Positions 7,701 through 59,453 of a DNA stretch of 64,000 bases are shown here, one piece after another. The translations under genes were made by a program, and so were the position numbers. The stretch covers positions 2,752,001 to 2,816,000 of the forward strand of contig OZ243938.1 in the NCBI GenBank assembly GCA_965214095.1, in the 5' to 3' direction. Origin of the DNA: Candidatus Poribacteria bacterium. Lineage in GTDB: Bacteria > Poribacteria > WGA-4E > WGA-3G. Positions within the stretch are counted from its first letter, which is position 1; each line of letters starts with the position of its first letter. The notes under the pieces are model-generated. The model saw only the letters and a program-made list of their open reading frames with translations. It was not told the origin of the DNA and did not search any database.

Positions 7701-9172
7701 TCTTTGATTATCTTGCGTCCACCGAGTGATTTTCTCATCTCACCATTCCAAGAAACTGTTTTTGATGTGTATGCTTCACAGACATCAACGATGATAGATC
7801 CAGTTTCTTTCGCTTTATGTTTTAGGAACTGTTTGAATCTGTAGTGAGAGAGTGTCAACATTTGTCGGACAGACCTCTTGCGTAGTTTGCGTTTTCCACG
7901 CATTACCATATCTGAAGTCTCAAATGTTGGGAGTAAGATAATATCAAAGGTATCTACAAGGTATCGTGCGACTTTATGATGCAATTCATCTACAAGATTT
8001 CTTATACGTGTGCGTATTCTGTTTGCAGCACGTCTCATATTCTTGCGTGATTGTCTATTTGCTTTAGCTGCACGAGATAATAGGTCATCGAGATATGAAC
8101 AGAGTCTTTGAATCCGATTGATAGCATGGTGTCCAAGCCATCCGAAACCACGCTCATGAAAATATGTGAGGAATGTTCTCACGCCAGGGTCTAAAGCAAC
8201 AACACGTCCGTTTGGCTTTCGCTTCGGAGTTGTCACAGTATAGGAAACACAGAGATAGTATTTATCATTCTCTTTCACGAGGCGTGAGTCACAGATATTA
8301 TCAGGTAACATCTCTGACATTTTGAGGTGTCCCAGCAAGGTGTGGTAAACACCTTGTTTTTTTATGGAAGACTTTGGAATGAAAATACTAGCTGAAGGGT
8401 GCCGTTTAGATTTGAAAGACACAGATTGAAACGCACCTGTTTTCTGACATTTTTGCTTTGCTGCTCTAACAGCAATACAAGCATCACGGATAGCAATAGA
8501 CTTTATCTGATACGGCGTTTCTTTGCTCCAATCAGGTAGATCGTGAAGAATACCTGTTTTTATCGCTTTCCAATTCGCTTTTGTGTCTGTTTCGTTCAAC
8601 AAAGCAACCGTTTTGTTGTAGGTAAAACGTGCTGTGCCAAACCACTGCCGAAGCGTTTCACGTTGTTCTGTTGTTGGATAAACTCTTATCTTCTTTGATT
8701 TTGTCACGGTAACTTCTGAGTCCGTGCATCCGGCTACTGAAGACATGCAGGATTGCGAGAAGATCCTGCGTGAGTTCTTCTTGTGGACTGTGCTCTGTTT
8801 GATCGAGAACCACGAGTTCGCCACCGTTTTGTTCAATGAGGTATCGTACAAGGTCGATATCGAATCGGGCGAGCCTATCCCGATGGGCAATAACAACTTG
8901 GAGCTTATCACCTTGCATAAGCCGTTCCAATAAGGTTCTAAGCCCTTTCCTTTTGAAGTTGATACCGCTTCCGATGTCTTTGATAACTTCTGCTTCGGGG
9001 TATATGCTTCGTATATACTCAACTTGTCGTTCGAGGTCATCTCTTTGCTTTGTGCTGGATACTCTGCAGTAGCAAACAGTTGCAATTGATTTGGATTTGC
9101 TTTTGATGTATCCTTCAACATCATAGCGTCTGTGTCCGCCTCCTGTGCGGATATATTCAATCTTTCCTTCAT
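7589..9172 (-). CDS. tnpB: TnpB RNA-guided nuclease, pro-Fanzor-like IS607 type; true start uncertain
   Basis: KIRVYPTTEQ...WFGTARFTYN, RuvC-I VALDPG, RuvC-II region IILLPTFE, EAYTSKT, RuvC-III NRDLNGARGI. Confidence 0.88.
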   Translation of the reverse strand: MKERLNISAQEADTDAMMLKDTSKANPNQLQLFATAEYPAQSKEMTSNDKLSIYEAYTPKQKLSKTSEAVSTSKGKGLEPYWNGLCKVISSKLLLPIGIGSPDSISTLYDTSLNKTVANSWFSIKQSTVHKKNSRRIFSQSCMSSVAGCTDSEVTVTKSKKIRVYPTTEQRETLRQWFGTARFTYNKTVALLNETDTKANWKAIKTGILHDLPDWSKETPYQIKSIAIRDACIAVRAAKQKCQKTGAFQSVSFKSKRHPSASIFIPKSSIKKQGVYHTLLGHLKMSEMLPDNICDSRLVKENDKYYLCVSYTVTTPKRKPNGRVVALDPGVRTFLTYFHERGFGWLGHHAINRIQRLCSYLDDLLSRAAKANRQSRKNMRRAANRIRTRIRNLVDELHHKVARYLVDTFDIILLPTFETSDMVMRGKRKLRKRSVRQMLTLSHYRFKQFLKHKAKETGSIIVDVCEAYTSKTVSWNGEMRKSLGGRKIIKDSTGRKMNRDLNGARGIFLRALVDEPWLLSMSNLQTV

Positions 9173-22941: not shown

Positions 22942-23002
22942 TGAATGGTGTCCATTGAATTTGTTAGATCAAGTAATTGTAGTATGTTTCTTATAGAAAT
23001 GC

Positions 23003-23344
23003 TTGAGTTGAGAATAAGCCGGATTCTGTATATGATGATCATTCATCTGGGATCGATGTTTCCATTGACCTCAAGCGGTTACCCGGGGACAAAGCGGGCA
23101 CACCTTTAAATGTCCCCCATTTTACCTTGCTCCAGATGGGGTTTACCGAGCACCATAAGTCACCTTATGGACTGGTGCGCTTTTACCGCACCGTTTCACC
23201 TGTACACCGTCTTTAAACGTTGTAGTCTGCTTTCTGTTGCACTTTCCATAGCGTTGCCGCTCCTGGGGGTTACCCAGCATCCTGCCCTGTGGAGTCCGGA
23301 CTTTCCTCATTCCATATTGGAACGCGACCATCTACTCAACTCAA
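23003..23344 (-). ncRNA. rnpB: RNase P RNA (class A)
   Basis: GAGGAAAGTCCGGACTCC, GGAAAGTGCAACAGAAA, GGTGCGGTAAAAGCGCACC and 3' ACAGAATCCGGCTTA; P1 formed by TTGAGTTGAG/CTCAACTCAA. Confidence 0.95.
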
Positions 23345-41686: not shown

Positions 41687-41772
41687 TGGGCGAGGAGGGA
41701 CTTGAACCCTCACGAGGCATAACCCCAATAGATCCTAAGTCTATCCTGTCTACCAAATTCCAGCACCCGCCC
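41687..41772 (-). tRNA. tRNA-Leu(TAG)
   Basis: Cloverleaf with long variable arm; anticodon arm ATAGA-CTTAGGA-TCTAT. Confidence 0.93.
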
Positions 41773-41852
41773 TTTATCTGACACTCAAAGTAAAGTAGTC
41801 CATCTCTATAGAAAGTTTACCATACGTGCATCTGTTCGTTAGATAGAACGGA

Positions 41853-41925
41853 TGCGCCGTAAAGGAATCGAACCTTCAACCCTCTGATTAAGAGTCAGAT
41901 GCTCTGCCAATTGAGCTAACGGCGC
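41853..41925 (-). tRNA. tRNA-Lys(CTT)
   Basis: Anticodon arm TCTGA-CTCTTAA-TCAGA; GGTTCGATTCC. Confidence 0.95.
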
Positions 41926-41926
41926 C

Positions 41927-41999
41927 CGCGTCCGGAGGGACTCGAACCCCCAACTTATAGCTCCGAAGGCTATTGCTCTATCCATTGAACTACGGACGC
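41927..41999 (-). tRNA. tRNA-Arg(TCG)
   Basis: Anticodon arm ATAGC-CTTCGGA-GCTAT; GGTTCGAGTCC. Confidence 0.93.
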
Positions 42000-42007
42000 A
42001 TCTAAAA

Positions 42008-42080
42008 GGTGGATGATGGGGATTGAACCCACGGCCTCCTGATCCACAGTCAGGCGCTCTACCCCTGAGCTACATCCACC
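42008..42080 (-). tRNA. tRNA-His(GTG)
   Basis: Anticodon arm CCTGA-CTGTGGA-TCAGG; encoded G-1 and C73. Confidence 0.93.
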
Positions 42081-42090
42081 ACGTTCAATA

Positions 42091-42164
42091 CACGCCTAGC
42101 AGGACTCGAACCTGCAACCCACAGCTTAGAAGGCTGTTGCTCTATCCAATTGAGCTATAGGCGC
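42091..42164 (-). tRNA. tRNA-Arg(TCT)
   Basis: Anticodon arm ACAGC-CTTCTAA-GCTGT. Confidence 0.94.
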
Positions 42165-42173
42165 ATGTGGAAA

Positions 42174-42248
42174 TCGGGGTGAGAGGATTCGAACCTCCGA
42201 CCTTCTGCTCCCAAAGCAGACGCGCTAGCCGGGCTGCGCTACACCCCG
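42174..42248 (-). tRNA. tRNA-Pro(TGG)
   Basis: CGGGGTG start; anticodon arm TCTGC-TTTGGGA-GCAGA. Confidence 0.95.
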
Positions 42249-54612: not shown

Positions 54613-55419
54613 ATGAACCAAAAATCCGCTGCAGATATTATCCAGCACTTCAGATTAGATGGCAAAGTAAGCCTCGTAAGTGGTGCAAGTCGTGGCATAG
54701 GTAGAGCAATGGCAGAAGGACTTGCAGGGGCAGGCTCAAAACTTGTCATCGCTGGCAGAGAGATTGACACGCTTACACCTGTCGCAGAAAAGATTGCTGA
54801 CGAAACAGGCAACACTGTCCTACCAATTCAAGCAGATGTCGGCGATCTTCAGGAGATTGAGGCACTCGTTGACCAGACTGTCAAAACCTTCGGTAGACTT
54901 GACATCCTGGTCAACAATGCGGGTGTGAATGTCCGAAATCCCGCGTTAGAATTCTCCGAAGAAGATTGGGATTTCGTTACAGGTGTCAACTTAAAGGGAG
55001 CATTCTTTCTCGCAAAAGCATGTGGCAAGGTCATGGAAAAGCAAGGCAGTGGCAAAGTTATCAATACGTTGTCGTTGACATCCGCTATTGGACTACCAAC
55101 AAGTGTTGCTTACACAGCAGCGAAAGGCGGTCTATTGCAGCTCACCAAACTTCTCGCTGTTGAATGGGCAGAACATAACATACAAGTCAACGGCATCGCA
55201 CCGGGTTTTATCCGCACTGAGATGACCGCGCCAGCAAGGGAAGATAGTCGAAACGAATGGGTCCTCAATCGCACCCCCGCATATCGATGGGGTGAACCGG
55301 AAGACCTTGCAGGATTGACAATTTTCTTCGCTTCTAACGCATCCGACTTTGTTACAGGACAAATGGTCTTTGTTGATGGTGGATTTATGGCTGGCAGTGA
55401 TTGGAGAAAACGAAAATAA
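54613..55419 (+). CDS. SDR oxidoreductase (gluconate 5-dehydrogenase/KduD-like)
   Basis: GASRGIG, NNAG, YTAAK, EWA..IQVNGIAPG, VDGG. Confidence 0.9.
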   Translation: MNQKSAADIIQHFRLDGKVSLVSGASRGIGRAMAEGLAGAGSKLVIAGREIDTLTPVAEKIADETGNTVLPIQADVGDLQEIEALVDQTVKTFGRLDILVNNAGVNVRNPALEFSEEDWDFVTGVNLKGAFFLAKACGKVMEKQGSGKVINTLSLTSAIGLPTSVAYTAAKGGLLQLTKLLAVEWAEHNIQVNGIAPGFIRTEMTAPAREDSRNEWVLNRTPAYRWGEPEDLAGLTIFFASNASDFVTGQMVFVDGGFMAGSDWRKRK

Positions 55420-55654: not shown

Positions 55655-56013
55655 AACATACCATTAAAGAAATAGTTGGTTCGAATGTCTTATGCACATT
55701 TGCCAAACACAATAATGCGCCTCGGACATTCATAGTAGTAGGCATACTCCGTATGCCGTTATTATACCATTTCTAATAGATAAGGTATCATTGGGAATTT
55801 GTAGATTTATCCTCAATTTGCTGAATATAAGAGGCGCAATGAATTGCGCGACTACGAGCGTCTGTTTTGATAATGAGTAGTTTTTATTTAGAAGTGGTAT
55901 TACAACGTTGTCGTCGCGCAACACAATACTGCGCCTCGGACATTCTCAATCTAAATTAGAATTTATACTCTCATAATGAGATATTCTCTATTAGAATTGG
56001 TATAACATTCACG

Positions 56014-56048
56014 AAAAAGAAGGTAGCGATCCGGAGACCGCTACCTTC
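56014..56048 (-). terminator. Intrinsic terminator
   Basis: GAAGGTAGCGGTC-TCCG-GATCGCTACCTTC-TTTTT (13-bp stem, one G-U). Confidence 0.8.
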
Positions 56049-56227
56049 ATAAATCGCGATTTGGATAACGCGCCTGCCCAAATCGCGATTTGGTGAGCAC
56101 GCCCTTAGGGGAGAGGGACGGGCGTACTCACGACTGTTAGGCACATGATATGCCTAAGTCCTTACATCTTTTTCTATTGAATACTTTCAAAAAACAGCGA
56201 AATCAAACTGAAGACACGTTAATTTCC
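56014..56227 (-). ncRNA. Candidate sigma54-dependent small RNA
   Basis: Lies between the -24/-12 promoter and a terminator; three internal hairpins, two with G-U pairs that form only on the minus strand; no ORF over 60 aa. Confidence 0.6.
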
Positions 56228-56237
56228 GATACTATTG

Positions 56238-56253
56238 AGCAAGTTTCATGCCA
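56238..56253 (-). promoter_or_regulatory. Sigma54 (-24/-12) promoter
   Basis: TGGCATGAAACTTGCT vs consensus TGGCAC-N5-TTGCW, correct spacing; divergent from a sigma54 activator gene. Confidence 0.75.
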
Positions 56254-56440
56254 TATATCCAATTTTTTACCGATTATGGCAGCAAAAACATAAAGACAAG
56301 AAAATGTCGCAAATCTTATATACGTTGTAAACAGTGATTTACACTGGATTTATAGGCATCACCTTTTTTATGAAAGTTTTTAAAAAAGAATTTTGATTTT
56401 TTAAAATTACATATTGTAGACTAACTCTAAATTAGTCGTG

Positions 56441-56499
56441 TACGCAAAAAATGCATGGCGATTCATGCAAATATTGCGTTGCTCATGCAAAAAATGCGT
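56441..56499. promoter_or_regulatory. Candidate upstream activator sequences (3x GCA-N5-TGC)
   Basis: GCAAAAAATGC 56444, GCAAATATTGC 56467, GCAAAAAATGC 56487; about 190-245 bp upstream of the sigma54 promoter. Confidence 0.55.
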
Positions 56500-56757
56500 C
56501 CTCAAAATGTGTCGGAATTCGCCTGTTTCAATCTGAAAAAACATTGTTTGAATCACAAAATTTTCACATCAAGTCAACTAAATGTTTCTAATTACGTTTA
56601 TGGAATTGATAAGACAATGTGCTGCATTTTATTGCCTACAATGCAAGAATGATTTGAGTATGGTAATGACGCATCATACATCCATCAGCATTGGGAAAAT
56701 GAAATTGCATTAACTTAAATAGACTTCGTCCAGAATAATATACTTAAGGAGCACATT

Positions 56758-57849
56758 ATGAACAAACAACCCGCATTCATCGAATTACCCTCTGCACCCA
56801 TGCAGACGATCTATCAGAAAATCAAGCAGGTTGTGAATTCTAATATCCCTTTTTTAATTACTGGAGAAACAGGAGTTGGTAAGGAAGGAATAGCAAAGTA
56901 TATACACGAAAATAGTTCACGACGAGACAAACCGTTTGTCGCGATAAACTGTGGAAGGTTCTCTGCTGAGCTTCTCCAAAGTGAACTTTTTGGGCATGAG
57001 GAAGGAGCATTTACCAGTGCAATCCGAAAACGGCAAGGTGCATTTGAACAAGCGAATGGTGGGATACTCTTTTTAGATGAAATCCCCGAAATGTCTTTTG
57101 ATGCACAAAAGATGCTACTCCGGGTTTTAGACACAACGACATTTACAAGACTCGGTGGAAATCATACCCTATCAGTAGATGTGCATATACTCACTGCGAC
57201 CAACAAGAATATTGAAAAAGTTGTTGAGGAACAACAATTCCGGAAGGACCTTTACTATCGCCTCAAAGGGTTGACCCTCTATCTACCGCCTTTACGGCAA
57301 CGAACAGAGGATATCGCACCATTGGTAGATGCTTTCATTCGTGAATTCAGTGCTGAATATGGTAAGGAGGTAATCGGAATTAGTCCAGAAGCACTGAATC
57401 ACCTTGAGCAAGCGGCGTGGCCCGGTAATATCCGGCAGTTGAGAAGCACTATACAAACCGCTATGGCTCTCACAACATCAGATACTCTTGAACCAAAAGA
57501 TTTCCCAAACATCTATCCTGAGTTCCTTCAAACGCTCATCTCAGTATGGGGGGCACTCCCAGCACAAACACAACAAGCAATATGGGAAGCACTCCATCCG
57601 GAAACACAACATATTATAATGCATGAATTCTCAACACAGATGCCACAACCGTGGTACAGTATGAGAAATTCAACTGATGCAGATGATGAAGTGTTAAATA
57701 TCGCTGACATGGAGCAAAATGAAATACTACGGGATGTCGCTCAAATGCGGATAGAAAAATATTCATCACTCCGAGAGGCAGCTGATTCGTTGGGTATTGA
57801 TATCAGAACCCTTCAACGGCACGCACAATGGAATAATGGAGACGATTAA
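56758..57849 (+). CDS. Sigma54-dependent transcriptional activator (AAA+ and HTH, no N-terminal regulatory domain)
   Basis: GETGVGKE, SELFGHEEGAFTSA, LFLDEI, FRKDLYYRL, WPGNIRQL, C-terminal HTH AADSLGIDIRTL. Confidence 0.9.
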   Translation: MNKQPAFIELPSAPMQTIYQKIKQVVNSNIPFLITGETGVGKEGIAKYIHENSSRRDKPFVAINCGRFSAELLQSELFGHEEGAFTSAIRKRQGAFEQANGGILFLDEIPEMSFDAQKMLLRVLDTTTFTRLGGNHTLSVDVHILTATNKNIEKVVEEQQFRKDLYYRLKGLTLYLPPLRQRTEDIAPLVDAFIREFSAEYGKEVIGISPEALNHLEQAAWPGNIRQLRSTIQTAMALTTSDTLEPKDFPNIYPEFLQTLISVWGALPAQTQQAIWEALHPETQHIIMHEFSTQMPQPWYSMRNSTDADDEVLNIADMEQNEILRDVAQMRIEKYSSLREAADSLGIDIRTLQRHAQWNNGDD

Positions 57850-57968
57850 TATATTTGTAGCATAAGAGCAAACTTACTTGATATTACACAATATAGGCGA
57901 GGTATTCACACCTCGCCTATATTGTTAAAGTAACGCGATTCGTCTCCAATGGCTCGGTTTCTGTTCAT

Positions 57969-58071
57969 TATAGTAGATTTTGAAATTACTTGAACACTCT
58001 GCATCGGCGAGGTTAGGAAACCTCGCCTACCGTGGGTCGAAAGTGTCAACTTATATTTATAATTCACTATA
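57969..58071. mobile_element. 103-bp MITE (copy of 11598-11700)
   Basis: Near-identical sequence; TATAGTAG...TTCACTATA ends. Confidence 0.75.
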
Positions 58072-58142
58072 ACACTTTTTTCTTGTGGATTCATTGGAAA
58101 TGTGCTACACTTACCAAAGATTCAAAACAGGAGGTGATGCAA

Positions 58143-59453
58143 ATGCTTCAACCAAAACCCCCACGCGCATTTCATGTGATGACAAAGCCAATCGGTCCAA
58201 TCTGCAATTTAGATTGCGAATACTGCTTCTACTTGGAAAAAGAAGAACTCTATCCAGAAACTCGTTCATTTAGAATGGGGGACGAGACTTTGGAAAATTA
58301 CGTCAAACAATATATAGAAGCACAACAGGTTAACGAAGTTACTTTTGCATGGCAAGGTGGCGAACCCACTTTGATGGGTATAGATTTTTTCAAGCAAGCA
58401 GTCCGATATCAGCAGAGATATAGACGCACGGGCATGACTATCCAGAACACATTCCAGACCAATGCAACACTACTTGACGATGAATGGGGTCAATTCTTCA
58501 AACGGAACAAGTTCCTAATCGGAATCAGTATTGACGGACCACCTGAAATTCACGACAAATACCGCTATGACAAACGCGGTCGTCCATCATCTGATCAGGT
58601 AATAAGCGGGTTGCGGATTTTACAAAACCATAGAGTTGATTATAATATACTTTGTGTTGTCAATAATCATAATGCTGAGTACCCGAAGGAAGTGTACGCC
58701 TATTTCAAAGAACTCGGTGCGGAGTTCATGCAGTTTATCCCTGCTGTTGAACATTTTGATGGTGAAAATGTGTCCCCGCGATCTGTCACAGCAAAGCAGT
58801 ATGGCAAATTCCTAACCGCGATTTTTGATGAGTGGGTCGTCAGTGACATCGGAAAAATCTTTGTGCAGATATTTGATGTAGCGTTAGAAGCGTGGATGGG
58901 GTATAATCCGAGCCTTTGTGTGTTCAATGAAACTTGTGGGGATGCAATGGCGATTGAACATAATGGCGATCTCTACTCATGTGACCATTACGTTGATCCT
59001 GAATACCTCATCGGAAACATAGAAGAAACATCATTAGCAGATCTTGTGGATTCACCGTTCCAACGCAAGTTTGGCACTGATAAGAAGGATACACTACCGG
59101 AATACTGTCGTAATTGCGAAGTGAAGTTCGTATGCAATGGTGGTTGTCCGAAAAACCGAATCATCAAAACACCCGATGGAGAAGATGGGTTGAACTACCT
59201 CTGTGATGGTTATAAGCACTTTTTCAATCATATTGATGAACCGATGAAACTCATGGCTTCCGCACTAAAGATGGGAAAACCTGCCAATAGTATCATACCA
59301 ATGATACGTGAGAAACAGAATCCAAAGTCTAAACGCAGTATCACGAGGACACAACCTGCTGGCACATCCTCACAGAAAATTGGACGAAATTCACCGTGTC
59401 CATGTGGAAGTGGACGTAAATATAAACAGTGCTGTTTAGGAAAGGACACATAA
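58143..59453 (+). CDS. Anaerobic sulfatase maturase (radical SAM/SPASM) with C-terminal SEC-C motif
   Basis: CNLDCEYC, WQGGEP, YSCDHYV, CRNC..C.GGCPK, GRNSPCPCGSGRKYKQCC; GGAGG RBS. Confidence 0.93.
   Translation: MLQPKPPRAFHVMTKPIGPICNLDCEYCFYLEKEELYPETRSFRMGDETLENYVKQYIEAQQVNEVTFAWQGGEPTLMGIDFFKQAVRYQQRYRRTGMTIQNTFQTNATLLDDEWGQFFKRNKFLIGISIDGPPEIHDKYRYDKRGRPSSDQVISGLRILQNHRVDYNILCVVNNHNAEYPKEVYAYFKELGAEFMQFIPAVEHFDGENVSPRSVTAKQYGKFLTAIFDEWVVSDIGKIFVQIFDVALEAWMGYNPSLCVFNETCGDAMAIEHNGDLYSCDHYVDPEYLIGNIEETSLADLVDSPFQRKFGTDKKDTLPEYCRNCEVKFVCNGGCPKNRIIKTPDGEDGLNYLCDGYKHFFNHIDEPMKLMASALKMGKPANSIIPMIREKQNPKSKRSITRTQPAGTSSQKIGRNSPCPCGSGRKYKQCCLGKDT

Follow-up and report, generated by a model that had tools for sequence, protein, structure and literature searches.

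The 64,000-nucleotide stretch of DNA analyzed here (hereafter the window; contig OZ243938.1 of assembly GCA_965214095.1, positions 2,752,001 to 2,816,000) comes from the genome of a Candidatus Poribacteria bacterium, one of a group of uncultured sponge symbionts. This source genome (G000) spans 5.25 Mb in 4 contigs, has a G+C content of 41% and is 94% complete. The window contains a 1.1-kb gap that is bounded by a gene of the SDR family (54613-55419, plus strand) and by a plus-strand gene for a bacterial enhancer-binding protein (bEBP), and whose minus strand carries a predicted small RNA (sRNA) gene composed of a sigma54 promoter, a leader and four hairpins, the last of which is an intrinsic terminator (Table 1). 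An initial annotation, made from the letters of the window, had proposed a new and unannotated structured sRNA of ~214 nt at this place. All of its coordinates for the promoter, hairpins, terminator and upstream repeats were reproduced, and both covariation and strand asymmetry now argue for such an RNA on the minus strand. We consider it likely that the locus holds a genus-specific sRNA gene that forms its own transcription unit, that is controlled by sigma54 and the neighboring bEBP, and that may act in trans through the loop of its second hairpin, with promoter control judged from conservation among genomes.

Table 1. Predicted features of the sRNA gene, its upstream region and the divergent bEBP gene (positions are those of the window)
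Feature	Position	Strand	Description
bEBP gene, 363 aa	56758-57849	+	AAA+ sigma54-interaction domain beginning at residue 12; N-terminal sensory domain lacking; loop motif GAFTSA, a variant; helix-turn-helix (HTH) at the C-terminus
Invariant motif TGCGTCATTA	56664-56673	-	bEBP-proximal half of the gap; invariant in 17 orthologous intergenic regions
Three palindromic enhancer-like sites, GCA-W5-TGC	56444-56454, 56467-56477, 56487-56497		pattern match
Conserved block ATAAATCCAGTGTAAATCACTGTTTACAACG	56323-56353	-	between enhancer-like sites and promoter; aligned in 11 genomes of the genus and at 5 loci of the sister genus
sigma54 -24/-12 promoter TGGCATGAAACTTGCT	56253-56238	-	predicted +1 at ~56227
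A/U-rich 5' leader	56158-56227	-	~70 nt; in a 12-genome alignment 55-75 nt long, sequence poorly conserved
Hairpin 1	56157-56137	-	7 pairs, 5 with compensatory change
Hairpin 2	56131-56093	-	12-bp stem, loop GUCCCUCUCCCCUAA; 99.3% of cells paired; 4 pairs compensatory
Hairpin 2 loop, candidate seed	56119-56105	-	15 nt, C/U-rich; core GTCCCTCTCCCC
Hairpin 3, long inverted repeat (14 + 2 bp)	56091-56051	-	16 pairs, 7 compensatory, 97.6% paired
Hairpin 4, intrinsic terminator stem	56048-56019	-	13 pairs, 7 G-C; 8 of 11 modeled pairs compensatory
U5 tail of terminator	56018-56014	-	TTTTT directly after the stem

The predicted sRNA is a variable leader followed by four conserved hairpins. On the minus strand, a 221-nt stretch folds at -92.4 kcal/mol, compared with -54.9 +/- 4.4 kcal/mol for 200 shuffled sequences (z -8.56), none of which equals it, and the plus strand of the same stretch reaches only -74.4 kcal/mol. 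The stems vary, whereas 23 of 24 copies of the RNA share an unchanged 12-nt core, GTCCCTCTCCCC, in the loop of hairpin 2. Hairpin 4 is absent from four genomes (G010, G019, G024 and G046), where a run of U residues instead stands directly 3' of hairpin 3.

The hairpin region occurs once in the source genome, and BLAST searches recover the element from 12 of 24 genomes of the same genus, with identities of 74-94%; a weak BLAST match in G004 (E 0.001) was unconfirmed by a covariance model. This model was built from 13 copies and run on 40 genomes of the genus, including the source genome, and on 151 genomes sampled from the order. It identifies the RNA in 23 of the 40 genus genomes, with every best E-value at or below 4e-21. 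Each of these genomes has one strong sense match; G044 has a second copy in addition (69 bits), and G053 a second match that is weak and partial. Strong matches in the sample of the order are confined to the genus (21 of 37 besides the source genome), and outside the genus the same sample yields three weak matches only, of at most 32 bits.

The second copy in G044 (L042:1501-1625) is full length, immediately follows the stop codon that ends a coding gene, and has its loop altered to GUUCUCUCCCC. In G053 (L043:1500-1625), there is another hairpin RNA of shorter length, with UACCCCUACCCUAA as its loop and a similar terminator.

An unbiased alignment of 13 copies, made with MAFFT and folded with RNAalifold, returns the same four helices, with compensatory changes at 11 of 46 pairs. 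When 24 copies are aligned, 96.6% of the pair cells are paired. Not one of 500 column shuffles reaches any of five covariation measures, and pairing falls to 32-42% of cells when the partners are slid by one to three columns. The initial annotation had named covariation as a check on the hairpins, and with 24 of the 46 pairs changed on both sides among the 24 copies, the helices are supported.

The same alignment discriminates between the two strands. The helices are 96.6% paired if read on the minus strand and 87.3% if read on the plus strand, and G-U cells outnumber A-C cells by 108 to 10. This excess identifies the minus strand as the transcribed one, in agreement with the direction of the promoter. 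We conclude that the element is a real, conserved and essentially single-copy gene for a predicted structured RNA, and that it is specific to the genus.

These data also bear on whether the element might act as DNA, either as a repeat of the repetitive extragenic palindromic (REP) or miniature inverted-repeat transposable element (MITE) type, or as a set of palindromes bound by a protein. High-copy repeats do adjoin it (55750-56010 and 57967-58060), and each half of hairpin 3 is palindromic in the source genome, where AAATCGCGATTT occurs twice. Such a reading is scarcely credible, however, because the hairpins are single-copy in their own genome and in almost every other, because the excess of G-U over A-C cells shows selection on one transcribed strand, and because covariation maintains the pairing between the arms of hairpin 3 (for example, AAACCGCGATTT with AAATCGCGGTTT) rather than each local palindrome. 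The prospect that the hairpins would prove to be high-copy REP elements had been raised at the outset; only the flanking DNA is high-copy. Hairpin 3, originally described as twin palindromes, is a long-range inverted repeat.

Likewise, the aligned copies speak to a 13-residue peptide, MCLTVVSTPVPLP (56146-56105), that had been offered as an alternative product of the transcript. An ATG, GTG or TTG codon stands at the aligned position in 18 of the 24 copies, and 14 of the 24 encode a peptide of 12-13 residues. Six copies lack a start codon at this position (they have AAG, GTA, ATA, TAC, ATT or TGC), and ten copies run on to 23-44 codons, seven of these without a stop, so neither end of the reading frame is conserved. 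Furthermore, the start codon resides inside the stem of hairpin 1, substitutions are compensatory at the RNA level, and the conserved residues PVPLP are simply the invariant loop read in frame. We therefore assign the peptide a very slight probability.

No Rfam family matches the sRNA. In Rfam 15, with families such as Qrr, GlmY/GlmZ, CrcZ, 6S and Y-RNA-like among those compared, the best matches between 55500 and 57000 score 17.7-19.8 bits against gathering thresholds of 46.5-80.4, and a scan of the whole window finds RNase P and six tRNAs only, with nothing at the sRNA. Metagenome contigs were searched with the pattern GTCCCTCTCCCC-N18-30-GATTTRG, and 80 of the 113 matching stretches were tested with the covariance model; none is the sRNA at E-values up to 0.01, and the tested matches are chance occurrences. 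In a scan of the source genome for hairpins with C-rich loops, the sRNA locus alone has a long stem. With 24 sequences and strong covariation, the RNA is a candidate for a new Rfam family. An RNA motif named Poribacteria-1 was reportedly described by Weinberg and colleagues in 2017. If it is included in Rfam 15, it gives no match here. Should the two RNAs be the same, the structure would already be a published candidate, and its link to a promoter and an activator would still be new.

Sigma54 promoters carry GG at -24 and, at a set distance from it, GC at -12 (consensus TGGCAC-N5-TTGCW). In TGGCATGAAACTTGCT, the GG and GC are separated by the canonical 10 nt, and there is one mismatch to the consensus. 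Because the pattern within one window is found no more often than chance predicts (two matches with at most one mismatch, versus 2.48 expected), the weight of the assignment rests on conservation across genomes. The sequence TGGCAY-N5-TTGCT is found upstream of 19 of the 24 RNA copies, at 126-148 nt from the loop core in 12 of them and at 228-790 nt in the other 7; in G003, which has one of the long distances, the extra DNA contains repeated sequence. In addition, all 17 aligned genomes that carry an orthologous bEBP (at least 73% identity) have the promoter, divergent from the bEBP gene and 476-618 nt from its start. The source genome also encodes rpoN (Sigma54_DBD, 194.3 bits, in an open frame of 598 aa). 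The initial annotation had held that its proposal would fall if rpoN were missing or if relatives failed to conserve the promoter or the structure; rpoN is present and both features are kept. The frequency with which the promoter accompanies the RNA (19 of 24 copies) and the bEBP gene (17 of 17 loci) thus supports the original claim that it would drive the sRNA.

Genome-wide, the source genome has 89 matches to TGGCAY-N5-TTGC, many of which lie in repetitive coding DNA that appears WD40-like by eye. About 20 others are located 25-90 nt before start codons of genes whose N-termini resemble signal peptides. Promoter counts derived from the pattern alone exaggerate the sigma54 regulon.

The gene next downstream of the RNA is a convergent open reading frame (ORF) of 230-266 aa in 15 of the 24 copies. 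G045 aside, one such ORF is confirmed as a member of Pfam Cation_efflux, 12 more share the N-terminal residues MDNCC, and two are longer ORF calls in which this motif is internal. Same-strand ORFs further downstream are few and differ between genomes, and no downstream gene is common to them. In the source genome, the 600 nt beyond the terminator consist of high-copy short repeats without a credible same-strand gene, the convergent SDR gene follows, and the cation-efflux gene is 1.27 Mb away. Since the next gene is convergent in 15 copies and is not shared in the rest, the sRNA appears to be its own transcription unit.

This arrangement leaves a negligible chance that the element is the 5' leader, such as an attenuator or a riboswitch, of a same-strand downstream gene. 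A terminator-gated leader would likewise show promoter, structured region and terminator in this order. Yet the neighbor most often points the opposite way, the source genome offers only repeats and then the SDR gene, and the few same-strand ORFs vary from one genome to another.

A different relationship to the convergent gene is conceivable, in which the element would serve as a bidirectional terminator or cis-antisense region for the cation-efflux gene, whose end lies 15-110 nt from the 3' end of the RNA in many genomes. The direct succession of the two in 15 of 24 copies would fit this role. We nevertheless consider it highly unlikely, because in G000, G051 and G021 the efflux gene does not adjoin the RNA, yet the RNA is fully conserved there. 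Moreover, hairpins 1 to 3 and the invariant loop far exceed what a terminator needs, and the RNA has a conserved promoter of its own. Ahead of the start codon of the cation-efflux gene itself (L023:2486-2610 and equivalents), the palindrome ACATGGTACCATGT looks like a repressor site.

The role in sulfate-ester or glycan metabolism that had been suggested from the neighboring genes in the window is not upheld by synteny. In a search of 30 bEBP loci (L049-L078), genes for an anaerobic sulfatase maturase and a sulfatase accompany the bEBP gene in no genome but G000 and G051; they are also neighbors in G021. The commoner neighbors are the convergent cation-efflux gene and, following the bEBP gene, genes for a 281-aa protein that matches no known family and for an alpha-amylase/CBM48 protein. 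In the source genome, the MITE- or REP-like short repeats that adjoin the RNA bracket the module formed by the sRNA and the bEBP gene, and each has at least 160 blastn matches in the genome. Contigs of DNA are interrupted or joined at these repeats, and an ORF of 64 aa (55730-55924, minus strand) sits within one of them. These flanking repeats may account for the differing neighbors in the lineage of the source genome.

The bEBP matches Pfam Sigma54_activat (PF00158) over residues 12-174 with 219.6 bits, along with AAA_lid_14, and its closest solved structures are of the NtrC1 type. Residues 16-339 align over the full length of the NCBIfam model for PspF (TIGR02974) at 231.3 bits, which is below the cut-off of 443.55. 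The protein resembles PspF-type bEBPs in that it joins AAA+ and HTH domains without a sensory domain and has a regulatory region divergent from its gene. It differs from PspF in scoring below the equivalog cut-off, in having GAFTSA in place of GAFTGA, and in that its predicted output is an sRNA rather than the psp operon.

Inheritance links this protein to the RNA. All 17 genomes with an orthologous bEBP carry the RNA, G052 provides an eighteenth linked pair, and the sampled genomes of the genus that lack the RNA have no relative of the bEBP above 58% identity. The sRNA is therefore both divergent from and co-inherited with the gene that had been named as its probable activator. In G022, one of the five remaining genomes with the RNA, the promoter is kept beside a truncated bEBP gene. 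The half of the gap nearest to the bEBP gene (56573-56757) holds further sequences, namely GCAGCACAT, AAACGT and GTTGAC, that are, like TGCGTCATTA, invariant or nearly so in 17 genomes; these motifs may be control sites for the gene of the sensor-less bEBP.

Three sites between the promoter and the bEBP gene, noted at first as GCA-N5-TGC repeats, form a cluster that is unique in the genome. The pattern GCA-W5-TGC has four matches in the window versus 1.04 expected, and three of the four are these sites; among 117 sites in the genome, the cluster is the sole place where two lie within 60 bp. Other members of the genus have related sites (ACAATTTTTGYG and TGCAATTTTTGCGT) at an equal distance upstream of the promoter, as do three of five loci in a sister genus. 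The conserved block between these sites and the promoter is, judging by its position, possibly a site for a DNA-bending (IHF-like) protein.

Orthologs of the bEBP in the sister genus are 60-73% identical and are often encoded as tandem pairs (loci L066-L078; for example, L070:1180-1461). No RNA with a C-rich loop was found near them within 4-kb loci. A sigma54 promoter (TGGCACGAAATTTGCT) is present ~55 nt upstream of a bEBP gene at 5 of 13 loci. All five have a central block AAACCCAGTGTACAYCTGTGTTTACAAAGG, which corresponds to AAATCCAGTGTAAATCACTGTTTACAACG in the source genome. Three carry ACAATTTTTGTG and TGCAATTTTTGCGT ~230 and ~208 nt upstream, and the other two a variant site, ACAATTTCTGCG. 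Because the enhancer-like sites, the block and the promoter are common to both genera, this cassette most simply belongs to this family of bEBPs. Its predicted output is the RNA in the present genus and bEBP genes in the sister genus, where its placement suggests positive autoregulation or a cascade between paralogs.

On this basis we put forward, as a tentative and rather doubtful extension, that a cassette made up of a sensor-less GAFTSA bEBP, enhancers, block and promoter has been rewired between genera. It would serve bEBP autoregulation in the sister genus, and here it would have the RNA as its sole recognizable output, a dedicated and chaperone-independent translational regulator with a loop that resembles an anti-Shine-Dalgarno sequence.

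In the mode of action that we favor for the sRNA, sigma54-RNA polymerase would bind the -24/-12 element (56253-56238), the divergent sensor-less bEBP would bind two to three of the palindromes ~190-260 bp upstream and open the promoter, and transcription would proceed from ~56227 to the terminator at 56014. Because the bEBP is without a sensor domain, the signal would probably enter by setting how much bEBP is present or by way of a partner protein that acts on the bEBP. The invariant C/U-rich loop of hairpin 2 would then act in trans by pairing with purine-rich, Shine-Dalgarno-like sites in mRNAs, without a classical chaperone. The loop is the one strictly conserved single-stranded element of the RNA, which suggests pairing with such sites, and we give this step slightly less than an even chance. 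Precedents for C-rich loops that bind G-rich ribosome-binding sites include the UCCC-motif sRNAs of Staphylococcus, RsaE/RoxS, and sX13 of Xanthomonas. As a lead only, the present RNA is like them in having a conserved C/U-rich apical loop and no classical chaperone; it is unlike them in having a single C-rich loop, where they usually have several, and in showing no homology.

Several observations weigh against parts of this model. First, four genomes (G016, G045, G008 and G021) retain the RNA without the sigma54 promoter and without the bEBP, which indicates that the RNA can persist under other control. Second, that the bEBP binds the palindromic sites is something that we infer. Third, the canonical sigma54-contacting loop motif of such activators is GAFTGA, and the bEBP has GAFTSA instead, a variant that is conserved throughout the family (among 40 orthologous matches, 38 have GAFTSA, one GAYTSA and one GSFTSA). 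Fourth, searches for targets give little encouragement. Loop duplexes of -16 kcal/mol or stronger at 7827 crude start sites number 93, compared with 44-84 for five shuffled seeds (counts extrapolated from every fourth start site), and the top matches have no common theme. The complement of an 11-mer of the loop has ~33 non-self matches in 40 genomes versus 52 for the reversed control. Pairing of the loop with the ribosome-binding site of the bEBP gene is weak (-5.2 kcal/mol), and the loop pairs poorly with the start of the neighboring cation-efflux gene.

An RNA whose loop is invariant in 23 of 24 copies and for which scans yield no enriched set of base-pairing targets could also be a decoy, in which case a protein would recognize the C/U-rich loop or the sequence-conserved hairpin 3 and be titrated. 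GlmY, for instance, acts through a protein by mimicry. CrcZ, which is likewise a sigma54-dependent sRNA located by its activator, binds Crc/Hfq (PMC8871633). Known sponges, however, usually contain several copies of their binding motif and this RNA contains one, and synteny links it to no candidate protein. In addition, no CsrA and no ProQ were found in the 94%-complete genome, and the search for Hfq gave only a sub-threshold Sm-like match in a frame of 326 aa rather than a canonical protein. For these reasons we judge a protein decoy to be unlikely and retain pairing in trans as the preferred function of the loop.

The predicted anatomy of this sRNA gene is that of known sigma54-dependent sRNAs that lie beside their activators. 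Pxr of Myxococcus xanthus is a multi-hairpin sRNA encoded beside the gene for the sigma54 activator Nla19/PxrR; the present RNA comes from a different phylum and has no Rfam match. In Vibrio, qrr1 adjoins luxO divergently, and the Qrr RNAs are Hfq-dependent and ~100 nt long. Unlike that system, the one described here has no Rfam match and no canonical Hfq that we could find, and LuxO has a receiver domain. The dependence of Qrr sRNAs on sigma54 and a bEBP, and their action in trans, are stated in a preprint (bioRxiv 10.1101/2021.07.01.450815).

In the Pseudomonadaceae, CrcZ is a sigma-N-dependent unit of its own beside cbrB that is directly activated by CbrB and whose synteny is conserved (PMC8871633). 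The resemblance lies in an sRNA gene that stands beside a bEBP gene in a separate unit. CrcZ differs in being on the same strand downstream of cbrB and in sequestering Crc/Hfq through repeated A-rich motifs, whereas the present RNA is divergent from its bEBP gene, has a single C/U-rich loop and shows no homology.

GlmY of the Enterobacteriaceae has a sigma54 promoter with three GlrR sites upstream and IHF sites in between, and is always co-localized with glrK-yfhG-glrR; sigma54 control of glmY/glmZ was gradually lost or replaced in some lineages that kept the sRNA (PMC3045617). Our locus is similar in its three sites, its block before the promoter, its linkage to a bEBP gene, and the four genomes that have the RNA without promoter or bEBP. 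In these four genomes, the RNA would have outlived its promoter and activator, a parallel to the loss of sigma54 control described for glmY/glmZ (PMC3045617). The differences are the absence of Rfam homology and the nature of the activator, since GlrR, as a response regulator, has a receiver domain and a kinase, whereas the bEBP here is sensor-less.

If the proposed circuit is correct, it is a compact one: a module of ~2 kb with a single activator, enhancer, promoter and RNA that could be tested outside the native host. It would also represent a regulatory cassette that is conserved in two genera and joined to different outputs. Our search of the literature found nothing on sigma54 circuits or regulatory RNAs in Poribacteria, and if the readings of cassette rewiring and translational regulation are both true, no regulatory RNA of this phylum of uncultured sponge symbionts would have had its regulator identified earlier.

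Other parts of the window contain several features that are separate from the sRNA gene. A bacterial class A RNase P RNA (296.6 bits) lies at 23000-23343 on the minus strand, and the six tRNA genes form a cluster at 41687-42248, also on the minus strand. The anaerobic sulfatase maturase encoded at 58032-59453 (TIGR03942, 526.8 bits) has a SEC-C motif at its C-terminus. Between 51529 and 54591, a protein containing DUF2250, which is a family reported chiefly from archaea, is encoded between two paralogous VWA-domain proteins of ~397 aa each.

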